Of a DNA stretch of 6,220 bases, positions 1 through 6,211 are shown one piece after another. Under the pieces are notes generated by a model. The model was not told the DNA's origin. It saw only the letters and a program-made list of their open reading frames with translations, and did no database searches. The position numbers and the translations under genes are program-made. This DNA comes from a virus. Position 1 is the stretch's first letter. Each line of letters opens with the position of its first letter. The stretch lies in the UHGV virus genome UHGV-0187156, one strand, 5' to 3'.

Positions 1-261
1 ATGATTCGTATCGAGATTTTAAAATCAGATATTACAACACGTTCTTTTACTTCAAATGGAAAGGACGTAACTTTTTTTGAGCAAACAGCCTACATTCATC
101 TTGGTGATGATTATCCGGCTAAGTTTTCATTAACTCTGCAAAAAAACCAGCAGGCTTATGCACCCGGTGACTATACTGTACATCCTGGTTCTTTGCGTGT
201 CGGTAATTATGGTTCGCTTGAGTTTCAGCGAAATGTAATTTTAGTACCACTAAAACAATAA
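1..261 (+). CDS. V: ssDNA-binding protein (gene V protein family)
   Basis: 86-aa ORF. Recalled similarity to M13 g5p (MIKVEIK...QPAYAPGLYTVH...FGSL...LVPAK versus MIRIEIL...QQAYAPGDYTVH...YGSL...LVPLK here). First gene of the morphogenesis block. If circular, the AGGA at the window end sits 7 nt upstream of this ATG. Confidence 0.88.
   Translation: MIRIEILKSDITTRSFTSNGKDVTFFEQTAYIHLGDDYPAKFSLTLQKNQQAYAPGDYTVHPGSLRVGNYGSLEFQRNVILVPLKQ
63..75. repeat. degenerate motif copy GGACGTAACTTTT (right half-site intact)
   Basis: Inside gene V, encoding KDVTFF in the same frame as the other copies; the left arm diverges. Confidence 0.45.
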
Positions 262-437: not shown

Positions 438-458
438 ACTTTACTTTTGGAGAAACAA

Positions 459-611
459 ATGGAACCTACAAACGCACTGGCTGGACTGCTTAACGCAATT
501 AATTTTTCTGATCTGATCGCAATCATGGTGGGTGTCGGTACAGCCGGTATCTCATTCATTCTCGCTGTGGTTGGCGTGAAACGTTTCTGGACTCTGGTCA
601 AAGGTATTTAA
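459..611 (+). CDS. VIII: major coat protein (pVIII-like), 50 aa, no obvious cleavable leader
   Basis: GGAG at 447-450, 8 nt before the ATG. Acidic N-terminus (E, D), continuous hydrophobic core (IAIMVGVGTAGISFILAVVGV), basic C-terminus (KRFWTLVKGI) as in DNA-contacting tails of inovirus coat proteins. Followed immediately by a strong terminator, as gene VIII is in Ff. Confidence 0.72.
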   Translation: MEPTNALAGLLNAINFSDLIAIMVGVGTAGISFILAVVGVKRFWTLVKGI

Positions 612-730: not shown

Positions 731-1966
731 ATGACTACAAAAAAGTTACTTTTGCTCGGTTTATTACTTACCAGCTTTAGTGTTATGCCTTTTATTCAAT
801 TTGCCTATGTCGGAGAATCTTTAATCTCTGCTGGTCTTGGTCGTCTTTTTGCCTCCCGAGCTGCAACAGCTGCAACAGGTGAAGTCTTTACGAAATTACT
901 ACAAAGTACTGTTGCTTCCTCAAAGGCAATAATACAAAAGAACCTTTCAAATATTCCTTTAAAGTCAGCCTTAAGAACCGCTGGCGGTGGTACATTCCTT
1001 GCCGTTCTCGGTCAATCTGGAATCTCTATTTATGACTACTTCACAAACGAAAAAGTAACTTTTGACGGTAATCTAACTGATGAAAATTTAAAAGTAAGTC
1101 GTCCATCTGAAAACTCTTTAGGTGAACTTAAAGAATGGAACGGCACATTTATAGATCTTGTAACTGCTGAGGGAACCTCAGTTCGTGGATATCCGCAGCC
1201 ACCACTACTCAGGAAAGAAACATCAAGCAGATACGCTATTTATTCAGCAACGACTGATCCGAGACTTCAGGAGTGGATACAGAGCAGCAGTCCTACAATT
1301 TTCTCAAACTCCTACGTTCAACAGCCTGACGGTAAGGCGGTAAAGATGGATCTCTATCGTTACCAACGAACCTTCAAGACAGGTGAAACTGTAGACGTGC
1401 CGAAATTGTCGGATAAGGTGACTGGATCGGTTGCTGATGTCGTACCGAAGTCTAAGCTTGAAGAAACCGTACCGATTGATGTTCTTACGGATATGGTGAA
1501 CTCGATAACGCGAAACATTGAGGCTGATGCGACTTATGAGGGTGTATCTTTCCCTGATGTCTGGACTCGCGATCAGGTAGCAGCTGCTTTCCCTGGTGTC
1601 CGCTGGGTAGATTTAGTCAGGCCAATTGAAAAAGACATTCCTTCGATTCCGGTAATTAGCACACCTAATGCGGATGTTGTTCCTGACTGGGGAACTTCCC
1701 CAGATAATGGCGACCTTTCAGATCCTGAGGCGCCACCAATTTCCTCGATTATTCAGCCTTTCAAGATAATGCAGACTGATATAAATAACAGGCTTGGTTT
1801 TAATATTCCTGCTGGTGAATGTCCTGTGTTTACTGTGAACTTCTTCGGAAAAATAAAATCAGACAATACATTTTGTGAATTCATGAATAAGTACGCTGGC
1901 GTGCTTAGGGCAATTTTCTTAGCAATGTCATCAATTCTTGCTGTCCGTATTTTCTTAACTGCATAG
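731..1966 (+). CDS. III: minor coat / adsorption protein (pIII-like)
   Basis: 411 aa. N-terminal signal-peptide-like segment (MTTKKLLLLGLLLTSFSV), C-terminal hydrophobic anchor (AGVLRAIFLAMSSILAVRIFLTA), size and position match Ff gene III. N-terminal receptor-binding part not recognisably Ff-like, as expected for host-range domains. Confidence 0.75.
   Translation: MTTKKLLLLGLLLTSFSVMPFIQFAYVGESLISAGLGRLFASRAATAATGEVFTKLLQSTVASSKAIIQKNLSNIPLKSALRTAGGGTFLAVLGQSGISIYDYFTNEKVTFDGNLTDENLKVSRPSENSLGELKEWNGTFIDLVTAEGTSVRGYPQPPLLRKETSSRYAIYSATTDPRLQEWIQSSSPTIFSNSYVQQPDGKAVKMDLYRYQRTFKTGETVDVPKLSDKVTGSVADVVPKSKLEETVPIDVLTDMVNSITRNIEADATYEGVSFPDVWTRDQVAAAFPGVRWVDLVRPIEKDIPSIPVISTPNADVVPDWGTSPDNGDLSDPEAPPISSIIQPFKIMQTDINNRLGFNIPAGECPVFTVNFFGKIKSDNTFCEFMNKYAGVLRAIFLAMSSILAVRIFLTA
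741..753. repeat. dispersed motif copy AAAAGTTACTTTT (perfect)
   Basis: Exact 13-mer, 10 nt downstream of the gene III ATG (codons 4-8). Confidence 0.9.
1051..1063. repeat. dispersed motif copy AAAAGTAACTTTT (perfect; extended 19-nt identity with the 3211 copy)
   Basis: Exact 13-mer inside gene III, encoding NEKVTF in frame. AAACGAAAAAGTAACTTTT is shared with 3205-3223. Confidence 0.9.
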
Positions 1967-1973
1967 GTGATTT

Positions 1974-2261
1974 ATGTACGCTGTACTCTTATCTGCTTTA
2001 ACACTTATTGCTAAATTCTTCATTAAAGGCACTGTAATAAAATTCGTTTTTTTTTCAGCTCTTGCGTACTTCGTGATCGAAATGGTGCCTTACATAATCA
2101 CATTTTTTATGGGCGGAAATTATCTTGCTGGTGTATTTGATCAAATGCCGTCGGGTATTCTTTACTTTCTGAATGTGATTGATTTCAAGACATCCTTTCA
2201 AATCGTCCTGTCCGCTTATGTGGCGCGTTTTGTGGTAAGACGCTTACCGGTGGTGGGCTGA
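1974..2261 (+). CDS. VI: minor coat protein (pVI-like)
   Basis: 95-aa strongly hydrophobic protein directly after gene III. AGGTGA SD at 1965-1970 overlaps the gene III stop. Its stop overlaps the gene I start (TGATG), as in Ff. Confidence 0.72.
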   Translation: MYAVLLSALTLIAKFFIKGTVIKFVFFSALAYFVIEMVPYIITFFMGGNYLAGVFDQMPSGILYFLNVIDFKTSFQIVLSAYVARFVVRRLPVVG

Positions 2262-3241
2262 TGGCTATAAACCTCTATGTGGGCCTACAGGGCGCTGGTA
2301 AATCATACGAAAGTGTAAAATCCGTTGTCCTCCCAGCTCTTGCTCAGGGACAGCGTGTTGTATCTAATATTGAAGGTCTTGATTCTGAGAAGGTATACGC
2401 CTATGTAAAAAAAATATTTAAGGTAGATGAATCATCAATCGGCGAGCTTGTGTATGTAGAAGACGACCTCATAAAGCGAGATGATTTTTTTCCAACTGAG
2501 GATGGTGATTCACAATACGTAAAATACGGTGATCTGGTTGTAATTGATGAAGCGTGGAGATTTTTTGATAGTGAAAGAACTCTGTTACCTAATCACAAAC
2601 AATTTTTCGGTATGTTGCGCCATTATGGCTGTCAAATGGCTGTCATTAATCAAACAAACGGTTTATGCAAAAGTCTGCTCGGTAGAATACAGACAACCTA
2701 CAAAATGCACCGTGCGTTTTCTGTCGGTTTTAAAACAAGGTACTCAATAATTAGTTACAGCGGCTCTGAGATGCGAAAGCAAGATATTTACAAAACTCAG
2801 GCTTTTCTAAAATACAACCCTGAAATATTCAGTCTCTATAAATCAGAAAAGCAAAAAGCAGCTACAAAACTAGATAAGAGACAAAATATATGGTCGGTAT
2901 TCGGTTTGTTATTACTAACGATCGGCGTGCTGGCTGTCTCTGCTACTTTTCTTTTTAAAAAATTCTACGGTGTGACTCCTGAACGCTCAGTTCCTGCGTC
3001 ATCTACTCCTTTACATCAACAAGTACCAGTGCCTACTTCGAATTTTATAGATACAACACAAAAAGCAACTTCCTACAGATATGTAGGTTTCTATCAGAAA
3101 GATAATCAGCGTTTTGCTCTACTGAGGGATGAAAATCAACTTCTAGTAATCATCCCTTACTCAAGATGCACAAATGAAGGTCGCCGAACCTCTTGTGAGC
3201 ATGAAAACGAAAAAGTAACTTTTTATGGTGGTGTGAAATGA
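2261..3241 (+). CDS. I: assembly ATPase (pI / Zot-like)
   Basis: 326 aa. Walker A GLQGAGKS near the N-terminus, Walker B-like LVVIDEAW, single transmembrane segment IWSVFGLLLLTIGVLAVSATFLF, periplasmic C-terminal tail. Stop overlaps the gene IV start (ATGA). Architecture recalled from M13 pI. Confidence 0.88.
   Translation: MAINLYVGLQGAGKSYESVKSVVLPALAQGQRVVSNIEGLDSEKVYAYVKKIFKVDESSIGELVYVEDDLIKRDDFFPTEDGDSQYVKYGDLVVIDEAWRFFDSERTLLPNHKQFFGMLRHYGCQMAVINQTNGLCKSLLGRIQTTYKMHRAFSVGFKTRYSIISYSGSEMRKQDIYKTQAFLKYNPEIFSLYKSEKQKAATKLDKRQNIWSVFGLLLLTIGVLAVSATFLFKKFYGVTPERSVPASSTPLHQQVPVPTSNFIDTTQKATSYRYVGFYQKDNQRFALLRDENQLLVIIPYSRCTNEGRRTSCEHENEKVTFYGGVK
3211..3223. repeat. dispersed motif copy AAAAGTAACTTTT (perfect)
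   Basis: Exact 13-mer at the 3' end of gene I, encoding ENEKVTFYGG, ending 15 nt upstream of the gene IV ATG. Confidence 0.9.
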
Positions 3242-4452
3242 AAAAAATACTCTTAACTATGACTTTTCTCTTAAACTCCTTTTTCGTGAATGCAACGAAT
3301 ATTGACTTCTCGATAACGGATGCAGGCCTTAACGATGTGATAACCCTCGTATACTCGGACATCTTAAAAAAGCCGTTTATGTTAGATCCTGCAATAGTTG
3401 AGAAACCACAAAAAGTTACTTTTTACTTCACAAAAAATCAGGACTTCGAAAAAACTTTTTATTCCTACCTGAACAGCCTCGGTTACGAAGTGAAAACAAA
3501 ATCAGGTGTCGATTTCATCAGGATTGCTCCTGAGCGTGTTATGGCGCCTCCAAAAACATACGTATACGTTTACCAACCTTTTCACCGTACTGTTTCTTAT
3601 CTTTCAGACATCATTTCGAATTCATTACAAAACAACTTTTCAACTGTAACCGGGATTGGTGATGGGAACATGTCGCCCGGAACTGTAGCACCGGATAGCG
3701 CCGGGCAGCTGCTTAGCAGAACTGGCGATAGACTTGTATTTAATGGCACTCAAGCAAAAATAGAAGAGCTCAAAAAGCTACTAACAGAAATTGATGTACC
3801 TAGTCAGTCAGTAGAGATAACCGGGTATCTATACGAGGTGGCCACAAATAAGAAAAATGGATCAGGTATGCAGCTTGCTGCAAAACTACTTTCCGGAAAA
3901 TTCAAGATCGGCATGGGTACAACACGGGGTTACAGTAACTTCATCTCTCTTTCAACGGGTAGTGTCGATGCTCTCTATGAGCTGTTCTCAACTGATAACC
4001 GGTTCACGGTTGTATCTGCTCCACGTTTGACCGTTGATTCTGGCGAGAAAGCATCTTTTGCCGTTGGTGATGATGTGCCTGTACTCAATACAACAACAAT
4101 TACAGATGGAACTGTACAGCAGGGGGTTTCTTATCAAAGCGCTGGTGTTCTCTTCAATGTTTCTCCGGTTGTTATATCATCAAAAATAAGACTTAACTTC
4201 TCCCAAGAGCTTTCAAGTTTCGTTGAGACAACAACAGGCGTAAACGACTCACCAACCAAAACAAAACGCACAATTCAAAGCGTTGTAACTGTAGACAATG
4301 GCTCTATCATTGTTGTTGGTGGGTTAGCTTCAAGAAAGAAATCTGATAACAAAACGGGTCTCAGTTTTTTGCCTGATATTTTTGCGCAAAATTCAGACTC
4401 TGATGAGCATACTGATTTGATAGCTGTCATTCAGGTAAGAAAGCTGGGCTAG
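3238..4452 (+). CDS. IV: secretin (pIV-like outer-membrane export channel)
   Basis: 404 aa with N-terminal signal-like sequence. C-terminal region matches recalled M13 pIV secretin motifs (VVSAPRLTVDSGEKASFAVGDDVPV versus ILSVPRILTLSGQKGSISVGQNVPF; VVGGLASRKKSDNKTGLSFLPDI versus LLGGLTDYKNTSQDSGVPFLSKI). Confidence 0.88.
   Translation: MKKILLTMTFLLNSFFVNATNIDFSITDAGLNDVITLVYSDILKKPFMLDPAIVEKPQKVTFYFTKNQDFEKTFYSYLNSLGYEVKTKSGVDFIRIAPERVMAPPKTYVYVYQPFHRTVSYLSDIISNSLQNNFSTVTGIGDGNMSPGTVAPDSAGQLLSRTGDRLVFNGTQAKIEELKKLLTEIDVPSQSVEITGYLYEVATNKKNGSGMQLAAKLLSGKFKIGMGTTRGYSNFISLSTGSVDALYELFSTDNRFTVVSAPRLTVDSGEKASFAVGDDVPVLNTTTITDGTVQQGVSYQSAGVLFNVSPVVISSKIRLNFSQELSSFVETTTGVNDSPTKTKRTIQSVVTVDNGSIIVVGGLASRKKSDNKTGLSFLPDIFAQNSDSDEHTDLIAVIQVRKLG
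3411..3423. repeat. dispersed motif copy AAAAGTTACTTTT (perfect)
   Basis: Exact 13-mer inside gene IV, encoding QKVTFYF in frame. Confidence 0.9.
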
Positions 4453-4500
4453 CACGATGCCGGAGCGCCAGCGACGAAAGAGGGATAGACCAGCTTTCTT
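4437..4500. repeat. long imperfect hairpin spanning the gene IV stop (11-bp arms, about 42-nt interior)
   Basis: AAGAAAGCTGG at 4437-4447 is the reverse complement of CCAGCTTTCTT at 4490-4500. In Ff the packaging-signal hairpin lies immediately downstream of gene IV. Confidence 0.45.
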
Positions 4501-4519
4501 TCTCTCTCTCTTCTGTCAG

Positions 4520-4532
4520 AAAAGTTACTTTT
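4520..4532. repeat. dispersed motif copy AAAAGTTACTTTT (perfect, intergenic)
   Basis: Exact 13-mer in the IG, directly after the polypyrimidine tract and before the C-rich run. Confidence 0.9.
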
Positions 4533-4569
4533 CTTCCTCCCCCCGTTTTCGTTGCCTCTGTGTCAATCG

Positions 4570-4605
4570 CTTAATCGTGGGGGCCCCTTTGGGGTTCCGA
4601 TTAAG
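4570..4605. repeat. nested palindrome: 8-bp outer stem around GGGGGCCCC and CCCCTTTGGGG
   Basis: CTTAATCG (4570-4577) pairs with CGATTAAG (4598-4605). The interior holds two mutually exclusive GC palindromes, so alternative folds are possible. Confidence 0.5.
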
Positions 4606-4640
4606 TGATTTACACCACTCCCCTTTTCATACTTCCGCCT

Positions 4641-4672
4641 GGTCGTTGGGGAGGCATTTTTCCCCAACGACC
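4641..4672. repeat. perfect 12-bp stem hairpin with 8-nt loop
   Basis: GGTCGTTGGGGA (4641-4652) is the exact reverse complement of TCCCCAACGACC (4661-4672); loop GGCATTTT. Confidence 0.6.
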
Positions 4673-4697
4673 TGTTAAGCTGGTTTTGCCTTAAGTG

Positions 4698-4708
4698 CCG
4701 CGAAGCGG
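4698..4708. repeat. GNA-triloop mini-hairpin CCGC-GAA-GCGG containing GCGAAGC
   Basis: The heptamer GCGAAGC (4700-4706) is the classic exceptionally stable DNA mini-hairpin, here extended by flanking C:G pairs. Confidence 0.5.
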
Positions 4709-4792
4709 TTTGGGGTTCTAGTGACACCCAAACTTTGGTATGGGATCGCATACTTTTTCACACCCCGCACCGTCCGGAAGTTGACTTTCTAC

Positions 4793-4987
4793 CTAACTTT
4801 TTTTTTCGGCTAAACTGCTGAAATATGCCTCCGTACCGTCAAGGTCGCCGTTTTCCATCAGGTATAATGCAAGCTGAGTCCAGGTGATGCTTTTCTTGTA
4901 TGCGAAGCTAAGTTCAATTGCTTTTTGCTCTAGCCGTTTCTTAGTCGATAACGGCACCCGCATTGAGATAGTTTTTTTTGTATTCAT
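4793..4987 (-). CDS. hypothetical small DNA-binding protein, ribbon-helix-helix-like (candidate transcriptional regulator)
   Basis: 64 aa (MNTKKTISMRVPLSTKKRLEQKAIELSFAYKKSITWTQLALYLMENGDLDGTEAYFSSLAEKKS). Minus-strand context AGCAGGAGGATTC-ATG gives an AGGAGG SD 4 nt before the start. N-terminal basic strand (TISMRVP) followed by two predicted helices fits the Arc/MetJ/CopG ribbon-helix-helix layout. Divergent from gene II. The longer start at 5053 in the ORF track lacks an SD. Confidence 0.5.
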   Translation of the reverse strand: MNTKKTISMRVPLSTKKRLEQKAIELSFAYKKSITWTQLALYLMENGDLDGTEAYFSSLAEKKS

Positions 4988-5023
4988 GAATCCTCCTGCT
5001 CTTACTTTACAGCAGACTTGCAG

Positions 5024-5052
5024 TTGCATAAATAATAGAATATGTGTATACA
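5024..5052 (+). promoter_or_regulatory. candidate sigma70 promoter for gene II (TTGCAT, 17-bp spacer, TATACA)
   Basis: -35-like TTGCAT at 5024-5029 and -10-like TATACA at 5047-5052 with a 17-bp AT-rich spacer, about 40 nt upstream of the gene II ATG. The -10 overlaps the 8-bp palindrome TGTATACA (5045-5052). Sequence-only prediction. Confidence 0.35.
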
Positions 5053-5092
5053 TAGATACAGGGATTCAGGGATACGGGTAAGGTGCTAAATA

Positions 5093-6211
5093 ATGTACTT
5101 TTTTGATTGGCTAGACATCTCTCAGGATTTTGGAACGGATTTACCCATCAAGAGTGATTTAGTGTATCTGCGCCTCAATACAGTAACTGGTGAGCATGGG
5201 GCTGTGAATCAACCAACCATCCGCCATCAGGGCAGTTTTTGCGATCAGCTCATGATAAGCCTTAAGGGCTCAGAATTGCGCGTGTCCGGGAACCCGTCAC
5301 GCTGGGGTCGTCTTGATAATCTGTTTGGTCATGCCACAATTGATCAGTGTGTAGCTGTATATAACGGGGTGCTTCGGTCTATGGGGTTGCCTGAATTTAC
5401 CAAATGTACAAAAACACTTGTCGTACAGGGTGACAGTAACGAAAAAGTAACTTATACCAGCAATGGTGCGATGATAAGAGAAATTCACATCACCACGAAT
5501 ACGGCTGTTGGTCAGGGGAATGTGCTTGATTACATAAAGGCATTAAGCACTCAGAGATACAGAAACTCTACTCCCTATCTGTACCCTAATGGTCGCTCTG
5601 TTGATTGGCGCACCAAGTCAGGTAGTACAAGCCTTGTTTATCCGACCGTTTACGATAAAGCAAATAACCTTATTGATAAAAATTTAAATAAGATAATTAA
5701 GACTTTTGGCGAAAATTCGCAAGAGCATAAGTATTTAAAGAAACTAATTGAATATTGCCAAATCAACGGTGTAGTACGATTTGAGCAAAAGTTAAAAAAT
5801 GAATACCTTCGTAGAAACAATATGCGTTTCTGGGGTATTGCAAACTTTGATCACTTGGAAGTATTACAGAATCAATTCCTTGATATTGATCAGAAACTAA
5901 CGGTGACAGCCATGAACTTTGAAACTATCTCAGATCATCTTATTGCTGAAGGTATCGTAAACAATACAAAAGCCAGCATTACAACAGCTATGTATGCTTA
6001 TTTGTGGATGCAGGGTAAGGAATTTGATTTTTCAAAATCGTCAGTAAAAACGCATCGAGCACGCTTAAGAAAAATCGGTATTGATATTGCTATGCCTTGC
6101 AATATTTCCCAGTTCCAGCCAGTGGTGGTAAAAAATGTACGTCAAATCGAACGTCAGACATTAACCGCGCCAGCCTGGTATAAACAACCGCAATTCCTCA
6201 TGGCCGTCTAA
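5093..6211 (+). CDS. II: rolling-circle replication initiator (pII-like nicking endonuclease)
   Basis: 372 aa with AAGGTG SD 6 nt upstream. Recalled similarity to M13 pII (GVVRFEQKLKNEYLRR versus GLVRFEARIKTRYLKS). Positioned after the IG, as in Ff. Confidence 0.85.
   Translation: MYFFDWLDISQDFGTDLPIKSDLVYLRLNTVTGEHGAVNQPTIRHQGSFCDQLMISLKGSELRVSGNPSRWGRLDNLFGHATIDQCVAVYNGVLRSMGLPEFTKCTKTLVVQGDSNEKVTYTSNGAMIREIHITTNTAVGQGNVLDYIKALSTQRYRNSTPYLYPNGRSVDWRTKSGSTSLVYPTVYDKANNLIDKNLNKIIKTFGENSQEHKYLKKLIEYCQINGVVRFEQKLKNEYLRRNNMRFWGIANFDHLEVLQNQFLDIDQKLTVTAMNFETISDHLIAEGIVNNTKASITTAMYAYLWMQGKEFDFSKSSVKTHRARLRKIGIDIAMPCNISQFQPVVVKNVRQIERQTLTAPAWYKQPQFLMAV
5443..5455. repeat. dispersed motif copy AAAAGTAACTTAT (one mismatch)
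   Basis: Inside gene II, encoding SNEKVTYT. Shares the extended left flank AACGAAAAAGTAACTT with the 1051 and 3211 copies. Confidence 0.75.
5912..6211 (+). CDS. X: pX-like protein from an in-frame internal start within gene II
   Basis: In-frame ATG at 5912 preceded by GGTGA (5902-5906). Product begins MNFETISD, comparable to the MNIYDDSA start of M13 pX. Ff gene X is the C-terminal third of gene II translated independently. Confidence 0.45.
   Translation: MNFETISDHLIAEGIVNNTKASITTAMYAYLWMQGKEFDFSKSSVKTHRARLRKIGIDIAMPCNISQFQPVVVKNVRQIERQTLTAPAWYKQPQFLMAV

Follow-up and report, generated by a model that had tools for sequence, protein, structure and literature searches.

The intergenic control regions of the Ff filamentous phages and of phage IKe share a layout in which a first hairpin, overlapping or following the stop codon of gene IV, is succeeded by a tract rich in C and T, by hairpin [B] and by a second hairpin of the minus-strand (complementary-strand) origin, and in which the plus-strand (viral-strand) origin consists of a hairpin with a conserved loop and a second hairpin close behind it. 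The same layout is found in the window analysed here (that is, the whole stretch of DNA presented as virus genome UHGV-0187156), which is a complete circular inovirus genome of 6,220 nucleotides (nt) from human metagenomes, and in which a cis-acting gap of approximately 340 nt lies between gene IV and a small gene on the reverse strand. An earlier reading of the letters, referred to below as the original prediction, described five hairpins in and around this gap, (a) to (e), as plausible packaging and origin elements. The comparative analysis reported here makes it likely that the gap serves a small filamentous phage as its control region, composed of a packaging hairpin, a minus-strand origin of the M13 type and a plus-strand origin of the type found in phage If1. 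Judged from sequence comparison, the region is a mosaic, in which the minus-strand origin belongs to the lineage of Ff, IKe and the Erwinia phages PEar, and the plus-strand origin and gene II belong to the lineage of If1. It is ordinary in kind for inoviruses, and is new as a combination of known parts rather than as a new kind of element.

In M13, domain A of the plus-strand origin is nicked between T5780 and A5781, within the loop GTTCTTT/AATA of its first hairpin, and the second hairpin follows one base on; of that nick sequence (GTTCTTT/AATAGTGGACTC) the window shares just GTTCT, with which its loop opens. The window further differs from Ff in an extra mini-hairpin upstream, in the replaced interior of hairpin [C], in a packaging hairpin that is unrelated in sequence, in a distant gene II protein and in the presence of a reverse-strand gene between origin and gene II. 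A closer counterpart of the plus-strand origin is found in If1 (NC_001954, approximately 5050-5110), where the same module of three hairpins (CGCGAAGCG, GTTCGGGGTTCTGTGACACCCGAAC and ACCGTGG-TTTC-CCACGGT) is again followed by a reverse-strand open reading frame (ORF). The major intergenic region of If1 has CGCGAAGCGGTTCGGGGTTCTGTGACACCCGAACTTTACCGTGGTTTCCCACGGT, and matches hairpins (d) and (e) and a third hairpin of the window element by element. In If1, however, there is no Ff-type [B] or [C], and the module lies 2.4 kb from the replication gene; the window, for its part, has one more base in the loop (CTAGTG, as against CTGTG) and another sequence in the third hairpin.

Two further systems resemble the locus in part. 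The ori(+) of CTXphi, which lies in ig-1 and is nicked by RstA, is located just past the 3' end of the reverse-strand repressor gene rstR and upstream of the replication gene; a CTXphi hairpin (CCCCCG-TCTAGTATTA-CGGGGG, at 3565-3590 of L021) has TCTAGT in common with the window's loop at 4715-4726, and CCTGTGACAC near that hairpin resembles the If1 loop TCTGTGACAC. Since the initiators are of unrelated families, the TCTAGT likeness may be due to chance or to convergence. RstA belongs to the PF02486 family, and CTXphi integrates by way of XerCD, whereas the window is without a dif-like site. In the Xanthomonas phages phiLf and phiLf-UK, a nick stem-loop adjoins a stem-loop with a GCGNAGC triloop (SL2 and SL3), and deletion of either abolishes replication; those phages differ from the window in initiator family, in a nick motif CTTG, in an origin that lies inside the replication gene and in a mini-hairpin placed downstream of the nick.

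Structure of the gap and the predicted plus-strand origin

All five hairpins are present where the original prediction placed them, and its proposal that they represent a packaging signal and the two origins is backed by comparison with other phages (for packaging, by position only). When the segment from 4430 to 4800 was folded as single-stranded DNA, the predicted energy was -65.8 kcal/mol, compared with -43.9 +/- 4.1 in shuffled sequences (z = -5.3; 0 of 100 shuffles as good), and the fold therefore beats its shuffled controls. Two features had been overlooked, namely the third hairpin mentioned above (4737-4754) and, at 4519-4533, the perfect palindrome GAAAAGT-T-ACTTTTC. The order of elements along the + strand, in which (a) is followed by (b) and (c) (together 4560-4680) and then by the plus-origin module (4698-4754), is identical in IKe.

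Constraint was assessed by comparison with L005, a contig of 6,219 nt from IMG/VR that is colinear with the window at 81.7% identity. Within the gap that identity is patchy: it amounts to 91% in hairpin (b), to 85-92% in the stems of (c) and to 98% in the plus-origin module (56 of 57 nt, against 82% genome-wide), and it falls to 53-69% in the spacers (53-59% in those beside the plus-origin module, 56-69% in the flanks of (b)). A search of all Rfam families (E up to 1) gave two chance-level matches only and none within the region, and a scan of 4300-5200 for promoters and terminators found none. A 73-amino-acid ORF at 4457-4678 is without a Pfam match, and is not considered coding because L005 has no ATG there and carries frame-breaking indels.

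The module at 4698-4754, which comprises the mini-hairpin (d), the putative nick hairpin (e) and the third hairpin, is very likely a plus-strand origin of the If1 type. The loop of hairpin (e) has the conserved form GTTCT(A)GTGACA. The core of the module, GGGGTKCT(N)GTRACACCC, has an exact match in the window at 4712-4729, and is common to If1 (L002, position 5065) and to at least 120 contigs found in a scan of IMG/VR, which together with the loci already collected amount to 132 loci. An If1-type gene II is encoded at 85 of these (37-57% identity; 95% in L005), and the motif lies on the gene II strand, 370-780 nt upstream, except in cases of circular wrap-around and in If1 with its 2.4 kb; the window's module is located 381 nt upstream of gene II on the same strand. 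Pseudomonas-like prophages are included among the motif loci. The reverse-strand gene that intervenes is of varying type (ribbon-helix-helix-like, helix-turn-helix-like and others), with 48 distinct products of which only 4 resemble that of the window, and it is because these intervening genes are of several unrelated types that the module can be said to track gene II and not its neighbour.

The structure of the module is maintained across the family as well. In 63 distinct sequences of the third hairpin, 91% of alignment cells are paired and 7 of 7 pairs are changed on both sides, and the spacing of 3 nt downstream of the nick hairpin is constant, such that structure is kept and sequence is not. 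The outer stems of the nick hairpin pair within each lineage (GTTTGGG/CCCAAAC, GTTCGGG/CCCGAAC, GTCCGGG/CCCGGAC and GTGTGGGTG/CACCCACAC); the counting of pairs in MAFFT alignments was unsuited to this stem and to that of [C], in which lineages lie one column apart in register, and both are for that reason described lineage by lineage. A profile built from 61 other sequences, excluding the window and L005, gave a single match in the window, at 4696-4759 (E = 5e-11). The original prediction had suspected an origin organised otherwise than that of Ff, and this suspicion is borne out: a sensitive blastn comparison of 4430-5100 with all phage records matched Ff at hairpin [B] only, and the type found is that which travels with If1-like gene II.

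The gene II protein, the presumed partner of this module, matches the Pfam families G2P_X_C (PF05155, E = 7.8e-27) and Phage_CRI (PF05144, 24.3 bits against a cut-off of 21.7), and its closest named relative is the replication protein of If1 (55% identity); against IKe pII, to which it is barely similar, pairwise BLAST gives only E = 0.087. Inovirus initiators have been divided into a PF02486 group (CTXphi, VGJphi and Pf), dependent on UvrD and HU, and a group of Ff, IKe and TLC that depends on the Rep helicase (PMC4863604), and by its domain content the gene II protein falls in the latter (pII/Cri) group. Kinship with CTXphi RstA is rejected, since the protein shows no similarity to RstA; the tag 'RstA1' is attached to relatives in some database records. 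In the If1 record itself (L002), the tblastn match to the window's initiator is in two pieces and extends over 7319-8432, from 7319 onward, while the annotated coding sequence 'ORF320' starts at 7464; the replication gene in this old record is probably frameshifted or annotated too short.

All members of the family have the G-T of ...(N)GT(R)AC, preceded by a base that is variable or absent. From this and from the hairpin loops of M13 and CTXphi, the nick site is placed within the loop at 4715-4726, with a position after G4721 (G4721/T4722) favoured at low confidence. The If1-type gene II protein would bind the module on the supercoiled replicative form and nick the + strand in this loop; the nick would prime rolling-circle synthesis, and the same site would be cut and resealed after one round.

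The remark that hairpin (d) contains GCGAAGC, known as an unusually thermostable mini-hairpin associated with origin regions of single-stranded DNA phages, gains substance from the recurrence of a G-N-A mini-hairpin in relatives of this phage. CCGC-GAA-GCGG is retained in the If1-like subgroup, with a loop that is mostly GAA (GCA in L005 and L034, CTA in L027). More widely, a C-GNA-G triloop hairpin whose stem has 3 bp or more occurs in 26 of 67 distinct upstream segments, compared with 1% of control windows, and the minimal GCGNAGC heptamer in 4 further segments. The stems are of at least five kinds, those of distant relatives being CGGC/GCCG, CTGC/GCAG, GCCGCC/GGCGGC and CCCC/GGGG. Many of the remaining upstream segments appear, by eye, to have an ordinary GC-rich inverted repeat instead. 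Mini-hairpins of the GCGNAGC type are unusually stable (the melting temperature of GCGAAGC is 76.5 C) and poorly bound by single-strand-binding protein (SSB) (PMC13037366), and the same review describes GCGNAGC at phage single-strand initiation sites (PMC13037366). With GCGNAGC also present in a replication-essential stem-loop of phiLf-UK, hairpin (d) is a recurrent part of the putative origin for which a functional precedent has been published, although one from another initiator family.

The probable minus-strand origin and the candidate packaging hairpin

The minus strand of filamentous phages is primed by the host sigma-70 RNA polymerase (PMC3411601). Homology to known origins allows hairpins (b) and (c) to be read, with high confidence, as a minus-strand origin of the Ff/IKe type, a relationship that had gone unrecognised in the original prediction. 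Of the whole genome, only the 60 nt at 4562-4621 have near counterparts in the phage collection: Erwinia phages PEar1-6 (91.7% identity), IKe (86.7%, at 6336-6392) and f1, M13 and fd (82.7%, at 5626-5676). In the GenBank record of IKe, 6333-6385 and 6410-6438 are annotated as the two stem-loops of the minus-strand origin. A profile constructed from PEar1, IKe, M13, L262 and L263 only matches the window at 4561-4690 (E = 1e-18). L262 and L263 are inoviruses with a [B] element that were recovered by a strict pattern scan of IMG/VR, which also gave two f1-origin matches resembling cloning-vector sequence; a looser pattern, CGATTNAGTGNTTTAC, was swamped by chance matches.

The 8-bp stem that had been described at 4570-4605 is present in hairpin (b), where it forms the inner part of a longer stem of 4 + 13 bp (-15.2 kcal/mol, z = -5.9, zero shuffles equal). 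Seven aligned sequences of [B] have 95% of their cells paired in this fold, with changes on both sides at 5 pairs; in slid registers the paired fraction is 26-50%. The nested GGGGCCCC palindrome that was likewise pointed out is probably incidental: it is disrupted in M13 (GGGGCTCCC), and what is retained in 7 of 7 homologues is the stem extension CCCC-TTT-GGGG. By virtue of conserved G.T wobbles, (b) is more stable on the + strand than on the opposite strand, where it reaches -12.8 kcal/mol, which fits a signal that is read on the packaged strand.

Hairpin (c) is a perfect 12-bp stem at 4641-4672 (z = -6.2, zero shuffles equal). The base of its stem and its 3' flank (CCAACGACCTGTTAAGC versus ccatcgccctgttagac) align to [C] of M13, IKe, PEar1, L262 and L263, and its interior is an unrelated 12-bp stem that was unalignable to [C] in both multiple and nhmmer alignments. 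With respect to the conserved sequence of Ff [C] (GGGTGATGG...CCATCGCCC), (c) stands at the same position, with its pairing register one column off. In L005 an 11-bp stem is unchanged and the loop is altered.

Higashitani and colleagues reportedly found in 1993 that the f1 primer begins at nucleotide 5736 and copies ACGTAGTGGGCCATCGCCCT. In M13 that sequence corresponds to 5717-5736, and the window base aligned to 5736 is T4673, opposite which the RNA primer is inferred to start. On incoming single-stranded DNA, (b) and (c) would stay folded and, as in Ff, be recognised by the RNA polymerase holoenzyme of the host, which would then lay down a short RNA primer from opposite approximately T4673, copying the 3' arm of (c), and host polymerase would complete the double-stranded replicative form after priming.

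Among approximately 141 loci, an Ff-type minus-strand origin and an If1-type initiator occur together only in the window and L005, and this combination, taken together with those of If1 and L263, shows that the two inovirus origins move as separate modules. L263 (IMGVR_UViG_3300007507_000033) carries IKe-like packaging, [B] and [C] hairpins on its minus strand at approximately 5500-5900, and encodes a replication protein with only 22% identity to IKe pII over 199 residues; it represents a second example of exchange without the initiator.

Hairpin (a), with arms AAGAAAGCTGG and CCAGCTTTCTT that can be extended to 15 nt with 93% complementarity, has a DNA fold of -15.4 kcal/mol (z = -3.5; 0 of 200 shuffles equal). 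Like the packaging signals of Ff and IKe it is a long hairpin at the end of gene IV in the orientation of the origin, here one that overlaps the gene IV stop codon, and in IKe the 'morphogenetic signal' stem-loop (6141-6196) occupies the same position relative to the end of gene IV (6151). Of its features in L005, six substitutions on the 3' arm leave 13 pairs intact (one G-C to C-G swap, three changes of T-A to T.G and one repaired mismatch being among them), and an inner stem of 8 bp is gained (13 + 8 bp). The 5' arm is gene IV coding sequence, and the substitutions accordingly gather on the free 3' arm and are of a pairing-preserving type.

Other properties of (a) speak against a packaging role: a blastn search of phage records found no sequence match between (a) and a known packaging signal, those of Ff and IKe included, and neither motif of the Ff-signal feature CGGGT...GGTG is present in its ascending limb AAGAAAGCTGGGCTAGCACGATGCCGGAGCG. 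Its outer stem of 15 bp encloses a weak interior; the stems reported for IKe and Ff are longer, at 22-24 bp. The packaging candidate of the original prediction consequently stands as regards its Ff/IKe-like position and a structure kept in L005, and finds no counterpart in sequence; from its position, a packaging function is on balance slightly favoured. Hairpin (a) may also help to stop transcription of gene IV. Downstream of it, 51 of the 64 bases at 4497-4560 are C or T (80% pyrimidine) and 7 are G. A tract rich in C and T occurs at the equivalent place in Ff, IKe and L262, and that of the window is 69% identical to L005. It may serve as a Rho-loading tract, a role that we assume for it from the f1 intergenic terminator and Ff biology.

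Alternative readings of the hairpins

Several observations count against the reading of the gap as a pair of origins. Hairpins (d) and (e) appear in the predicted fold, yet their energy is marginal relative to shuffles (z = -1.9, 10 of 200 as good), and the argument for their reality is one of conservation and not of energy. The mini-hairpin and the inner stems of the nick hairpin are invariant in the close subgroup and so display no covariation there, and the covariation of the third hairpin could as well reflect a hairpin in RNA, or a protein-binding palindrome that is free to change its sequence. The alignment of [B] comprises only seven sequences from approximately five lineages, and recognition of (c) by RNA polymerase is extrapolated, given that its interior is unalignable to Ff [C]. 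The favoured nick after G4721 is a guess, and a limited literature search found no experimental work on this phage, on the If1 origin or on its relatives.

It is conceivable that the hairpins are mainly transcription signals, acting to terminate or stabilise the transcripts of gene IV and of the converging gene. Gene IV ends in hairpin (a), behind which comes a T/C-rich tract, the third hairpin precedes TTTTT on the + strand and covaries in a manner that also suits an RNA hairpin, and the IKe record tags intergenic stem-loops as 'pot. transcription termination' in addition to origin and morphogenetic signal. Yet the terminator scan came up empty, the third hairpin contains just two G-C pairs, the run of T residues after it is absent in many relatives, and its 3-nt spacing to the nick hairpin is fixed. 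These facts, together with the linkage of the module to gene II type over 85 loci and the homology of (b) and (c) to an experimentally defined origin, render a mainly transcriptional function quite improbable, although (a) and the third hairpin may have a secondary role in termination.

A different proposition, and a very improbable one, is that 4698-4754 is an operator or other site for the reverse-strand regulator, the true origin being elsewhere, for example inside gene II or at 4988-5092. The If1 module adjoins a reverse-strand ORF even where an insertion separates it by 2.4 kb from the replication gene, the phiLf origin is inside its replication gene, and 4988-5092 is also highly conserved (91%); the type of the neighbouring gene changes, however, while module and gene II family remain linked, a conserved-loop hairpin followed by a second hairpin is the layout of known rolling-circle origins, and 4988-5092, between divergent start codons, is more simply explained as promoter and operator. 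That one of the hairpins might be a folded single-strand attachment site for XerC/XerD is suggested by CTXphi, whose att site is the stem of a + strand hairpin, and by dif-like sequences in several of the fetched relatives. The best dif-like match anywhere in the window is mismatched at 8 of the 22 arm positions, the genomes searched yielded no integrated copy, and the phage was recovered as 6.2-kb circles, all of which makes such a site extremely unlikely.

The phage, its genes and a dispersed palindrome

A metagenome contig of 6,275 nt is 100% identical to the window and repeats 55 nt at its ends, which defines a circle of 6,220 nt; a second circular contig is 99.7% identical to the window, with zero differences in the intergenic region. 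The search for integrated copies found none among 185,579 species-representative genomes and none in complete genomes of E. coli, and the phage is a free-replicating filamentous phage of human-associated samples. Its G+C content of 41% presumably resembles the base composition of M13 and IKe, and the Ff-type minus-strand element is otherwise known, within the set compared, from phages of Escherichia, Salmonella and Erwinia; the host may plausibly be an enterobacterium.

The genes constitute the standard inovirus set on one strand, in the order V-VIII-III-VI-I-IV, gap, II, and their Pfam families agree with that order (Table 1). At 631-650, directly 3' of the coat-like ORF, GGGGCTTCGGCCCC is followed by seven T residues; this element, which has a weak Rfam match, is a textbook intrinsic terminator, placed like that of gene VIII in Ff. 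The 64-amino-acid product of the reverse-strand ORF begins with a beta-strand and then a helix, ribbon-helix-helix-like by eye, and is probably a small DNA-binding regulator; the ORF bounds the origins and does not belong to them. The segment from 4988 to 5092, which lies between the divergent start codons, shares the 91% identity noted above with L005, contains repeats (GGGATTCAGGGATAC) and is probably a promoter and operator region.

Table 1. Features of the 6,220-nt window, with positions and proposed roles
Feature	Position	Strand	Role or remark
Gene V-type single-strand-binding protein	1-261	+	inovirus gene set
Short coat-like ORF	447-611	+	inovirus gene set
Gene III-like ORF	731-1966	+	inovirus gene set
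Gene VI	1974-2261	+	DUF2523
Gene I	2261-3241	+	Zot
Gene IV	3238-4452	+	secretin; TAG at 4450-4452
Hairpin (a)	4437-4500	+	candidate packaging (morphogenetic) signal; spans gene IV stop codon
Pyrimidine-rich spacer	4501-4559	+	between hairpin (a) and putative minus-strand origin; holds dispersed palindrome copy 4520-4532
Hairpin (b)	4560-4615	+	homologue of Ff/IKe hairpin [B]; putative first half of minus-strand origin
Hairpin (c) and conserved 3' flank CCTGTTAAGC	4641-4680	+	positional homologue of Ff [C]; putative second half of minus-strand origin
Mini-hairpin (d), CCGC-GAA-GCGG	4698-4708	+	upstream element of putative plus-strand origin
Hairpin (e), GTTTGGG...CCCAAAC	4708-4733	+	predicted nick hairpin; loop GTTCTAGTGACA at 4715-4726
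Third hairpin, GGTATG-GGATCG-CATACT	4737-4754	+	part of putative plus-strand origin, 3 nt 3' of (e)
64-amino-acid reverse-strand ORF	4796-4987	-	right boundary; phrog_2503, function unknown, E = 7e-8
Gene II-type initiator	5093-6211	+	replication initiator; predicted protein partner of plus-strand origin
Dispersed palindrome AAAAGTWACTTTT	741-753, 1051-1063, 3211-3223, 3411-3423, 4520-4532		exact matches
Dispersed palindrome, one mismatch	5443-5455

The palindrome in the pyrimidine-rich spacer belongs to a dispersed set. Five exact copies of the 13-bp sequence AAAAGTWACTTTT are present in 6.2 kb, where 0.0025 would be expected, together with one single-mismatch copy. One copy is intergenic and the others are distributed over genes III, I, IV and II, with three sharing a reading phase (EKVTF/Y, in pIII, pI and pII). 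In L005 the copies stand at the same places, with 4 changes over 78 motif positions, whereas the synonymous sites around them have changed. No copy of AAAAGTWACTTTT was found in the other inoviruses fetched; where relatives have repeated palindromes, these are clustered operator pairs.

Two further readings, one in which the G-N-A triloop would be an obligatory, structure-specific part of the rolling-circle origin and one in which AAAAGTWACTTTT would be the site of a DNA-binding factor acting genome-wide, must be considered doubtful. If the first were true, the triloop might resist SSB and gene V protein and so leave the nick hairpin open to termination and resealing, which would provide a natural function, in a widespread type of rolling-circle origin, for what has been called an 'extraordinarily stable mini-hairpin'. 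In the second, the factor that binds AAAAGTWACTTTT could be the 64-amino-acid regulator of the phage, or else a protein of the host or of a conjugative plasmid, and a genome-wide binding system of this sort would be one undescribed for Ff-like phages.

The current view of how such phages work is left unchanged by these results. They fix the positions of the signals of an uncultured, human-associated phage, as is needed for phagemid or host-range tests, and they furnish a comparative definition of the If1-type origin (an upstream hairpin, often a G-N-A mini-hairpin, then a nick hairpin whose loop core is invariant, then a third hairpin that covaries), a type of which the region is a clean example. 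That definition could be used for the annotation of origins in inovirus genomes, and applies to at least 85 contigs. The comparison also shows that inoviruses exchange their two replication origins as modules in their own right.

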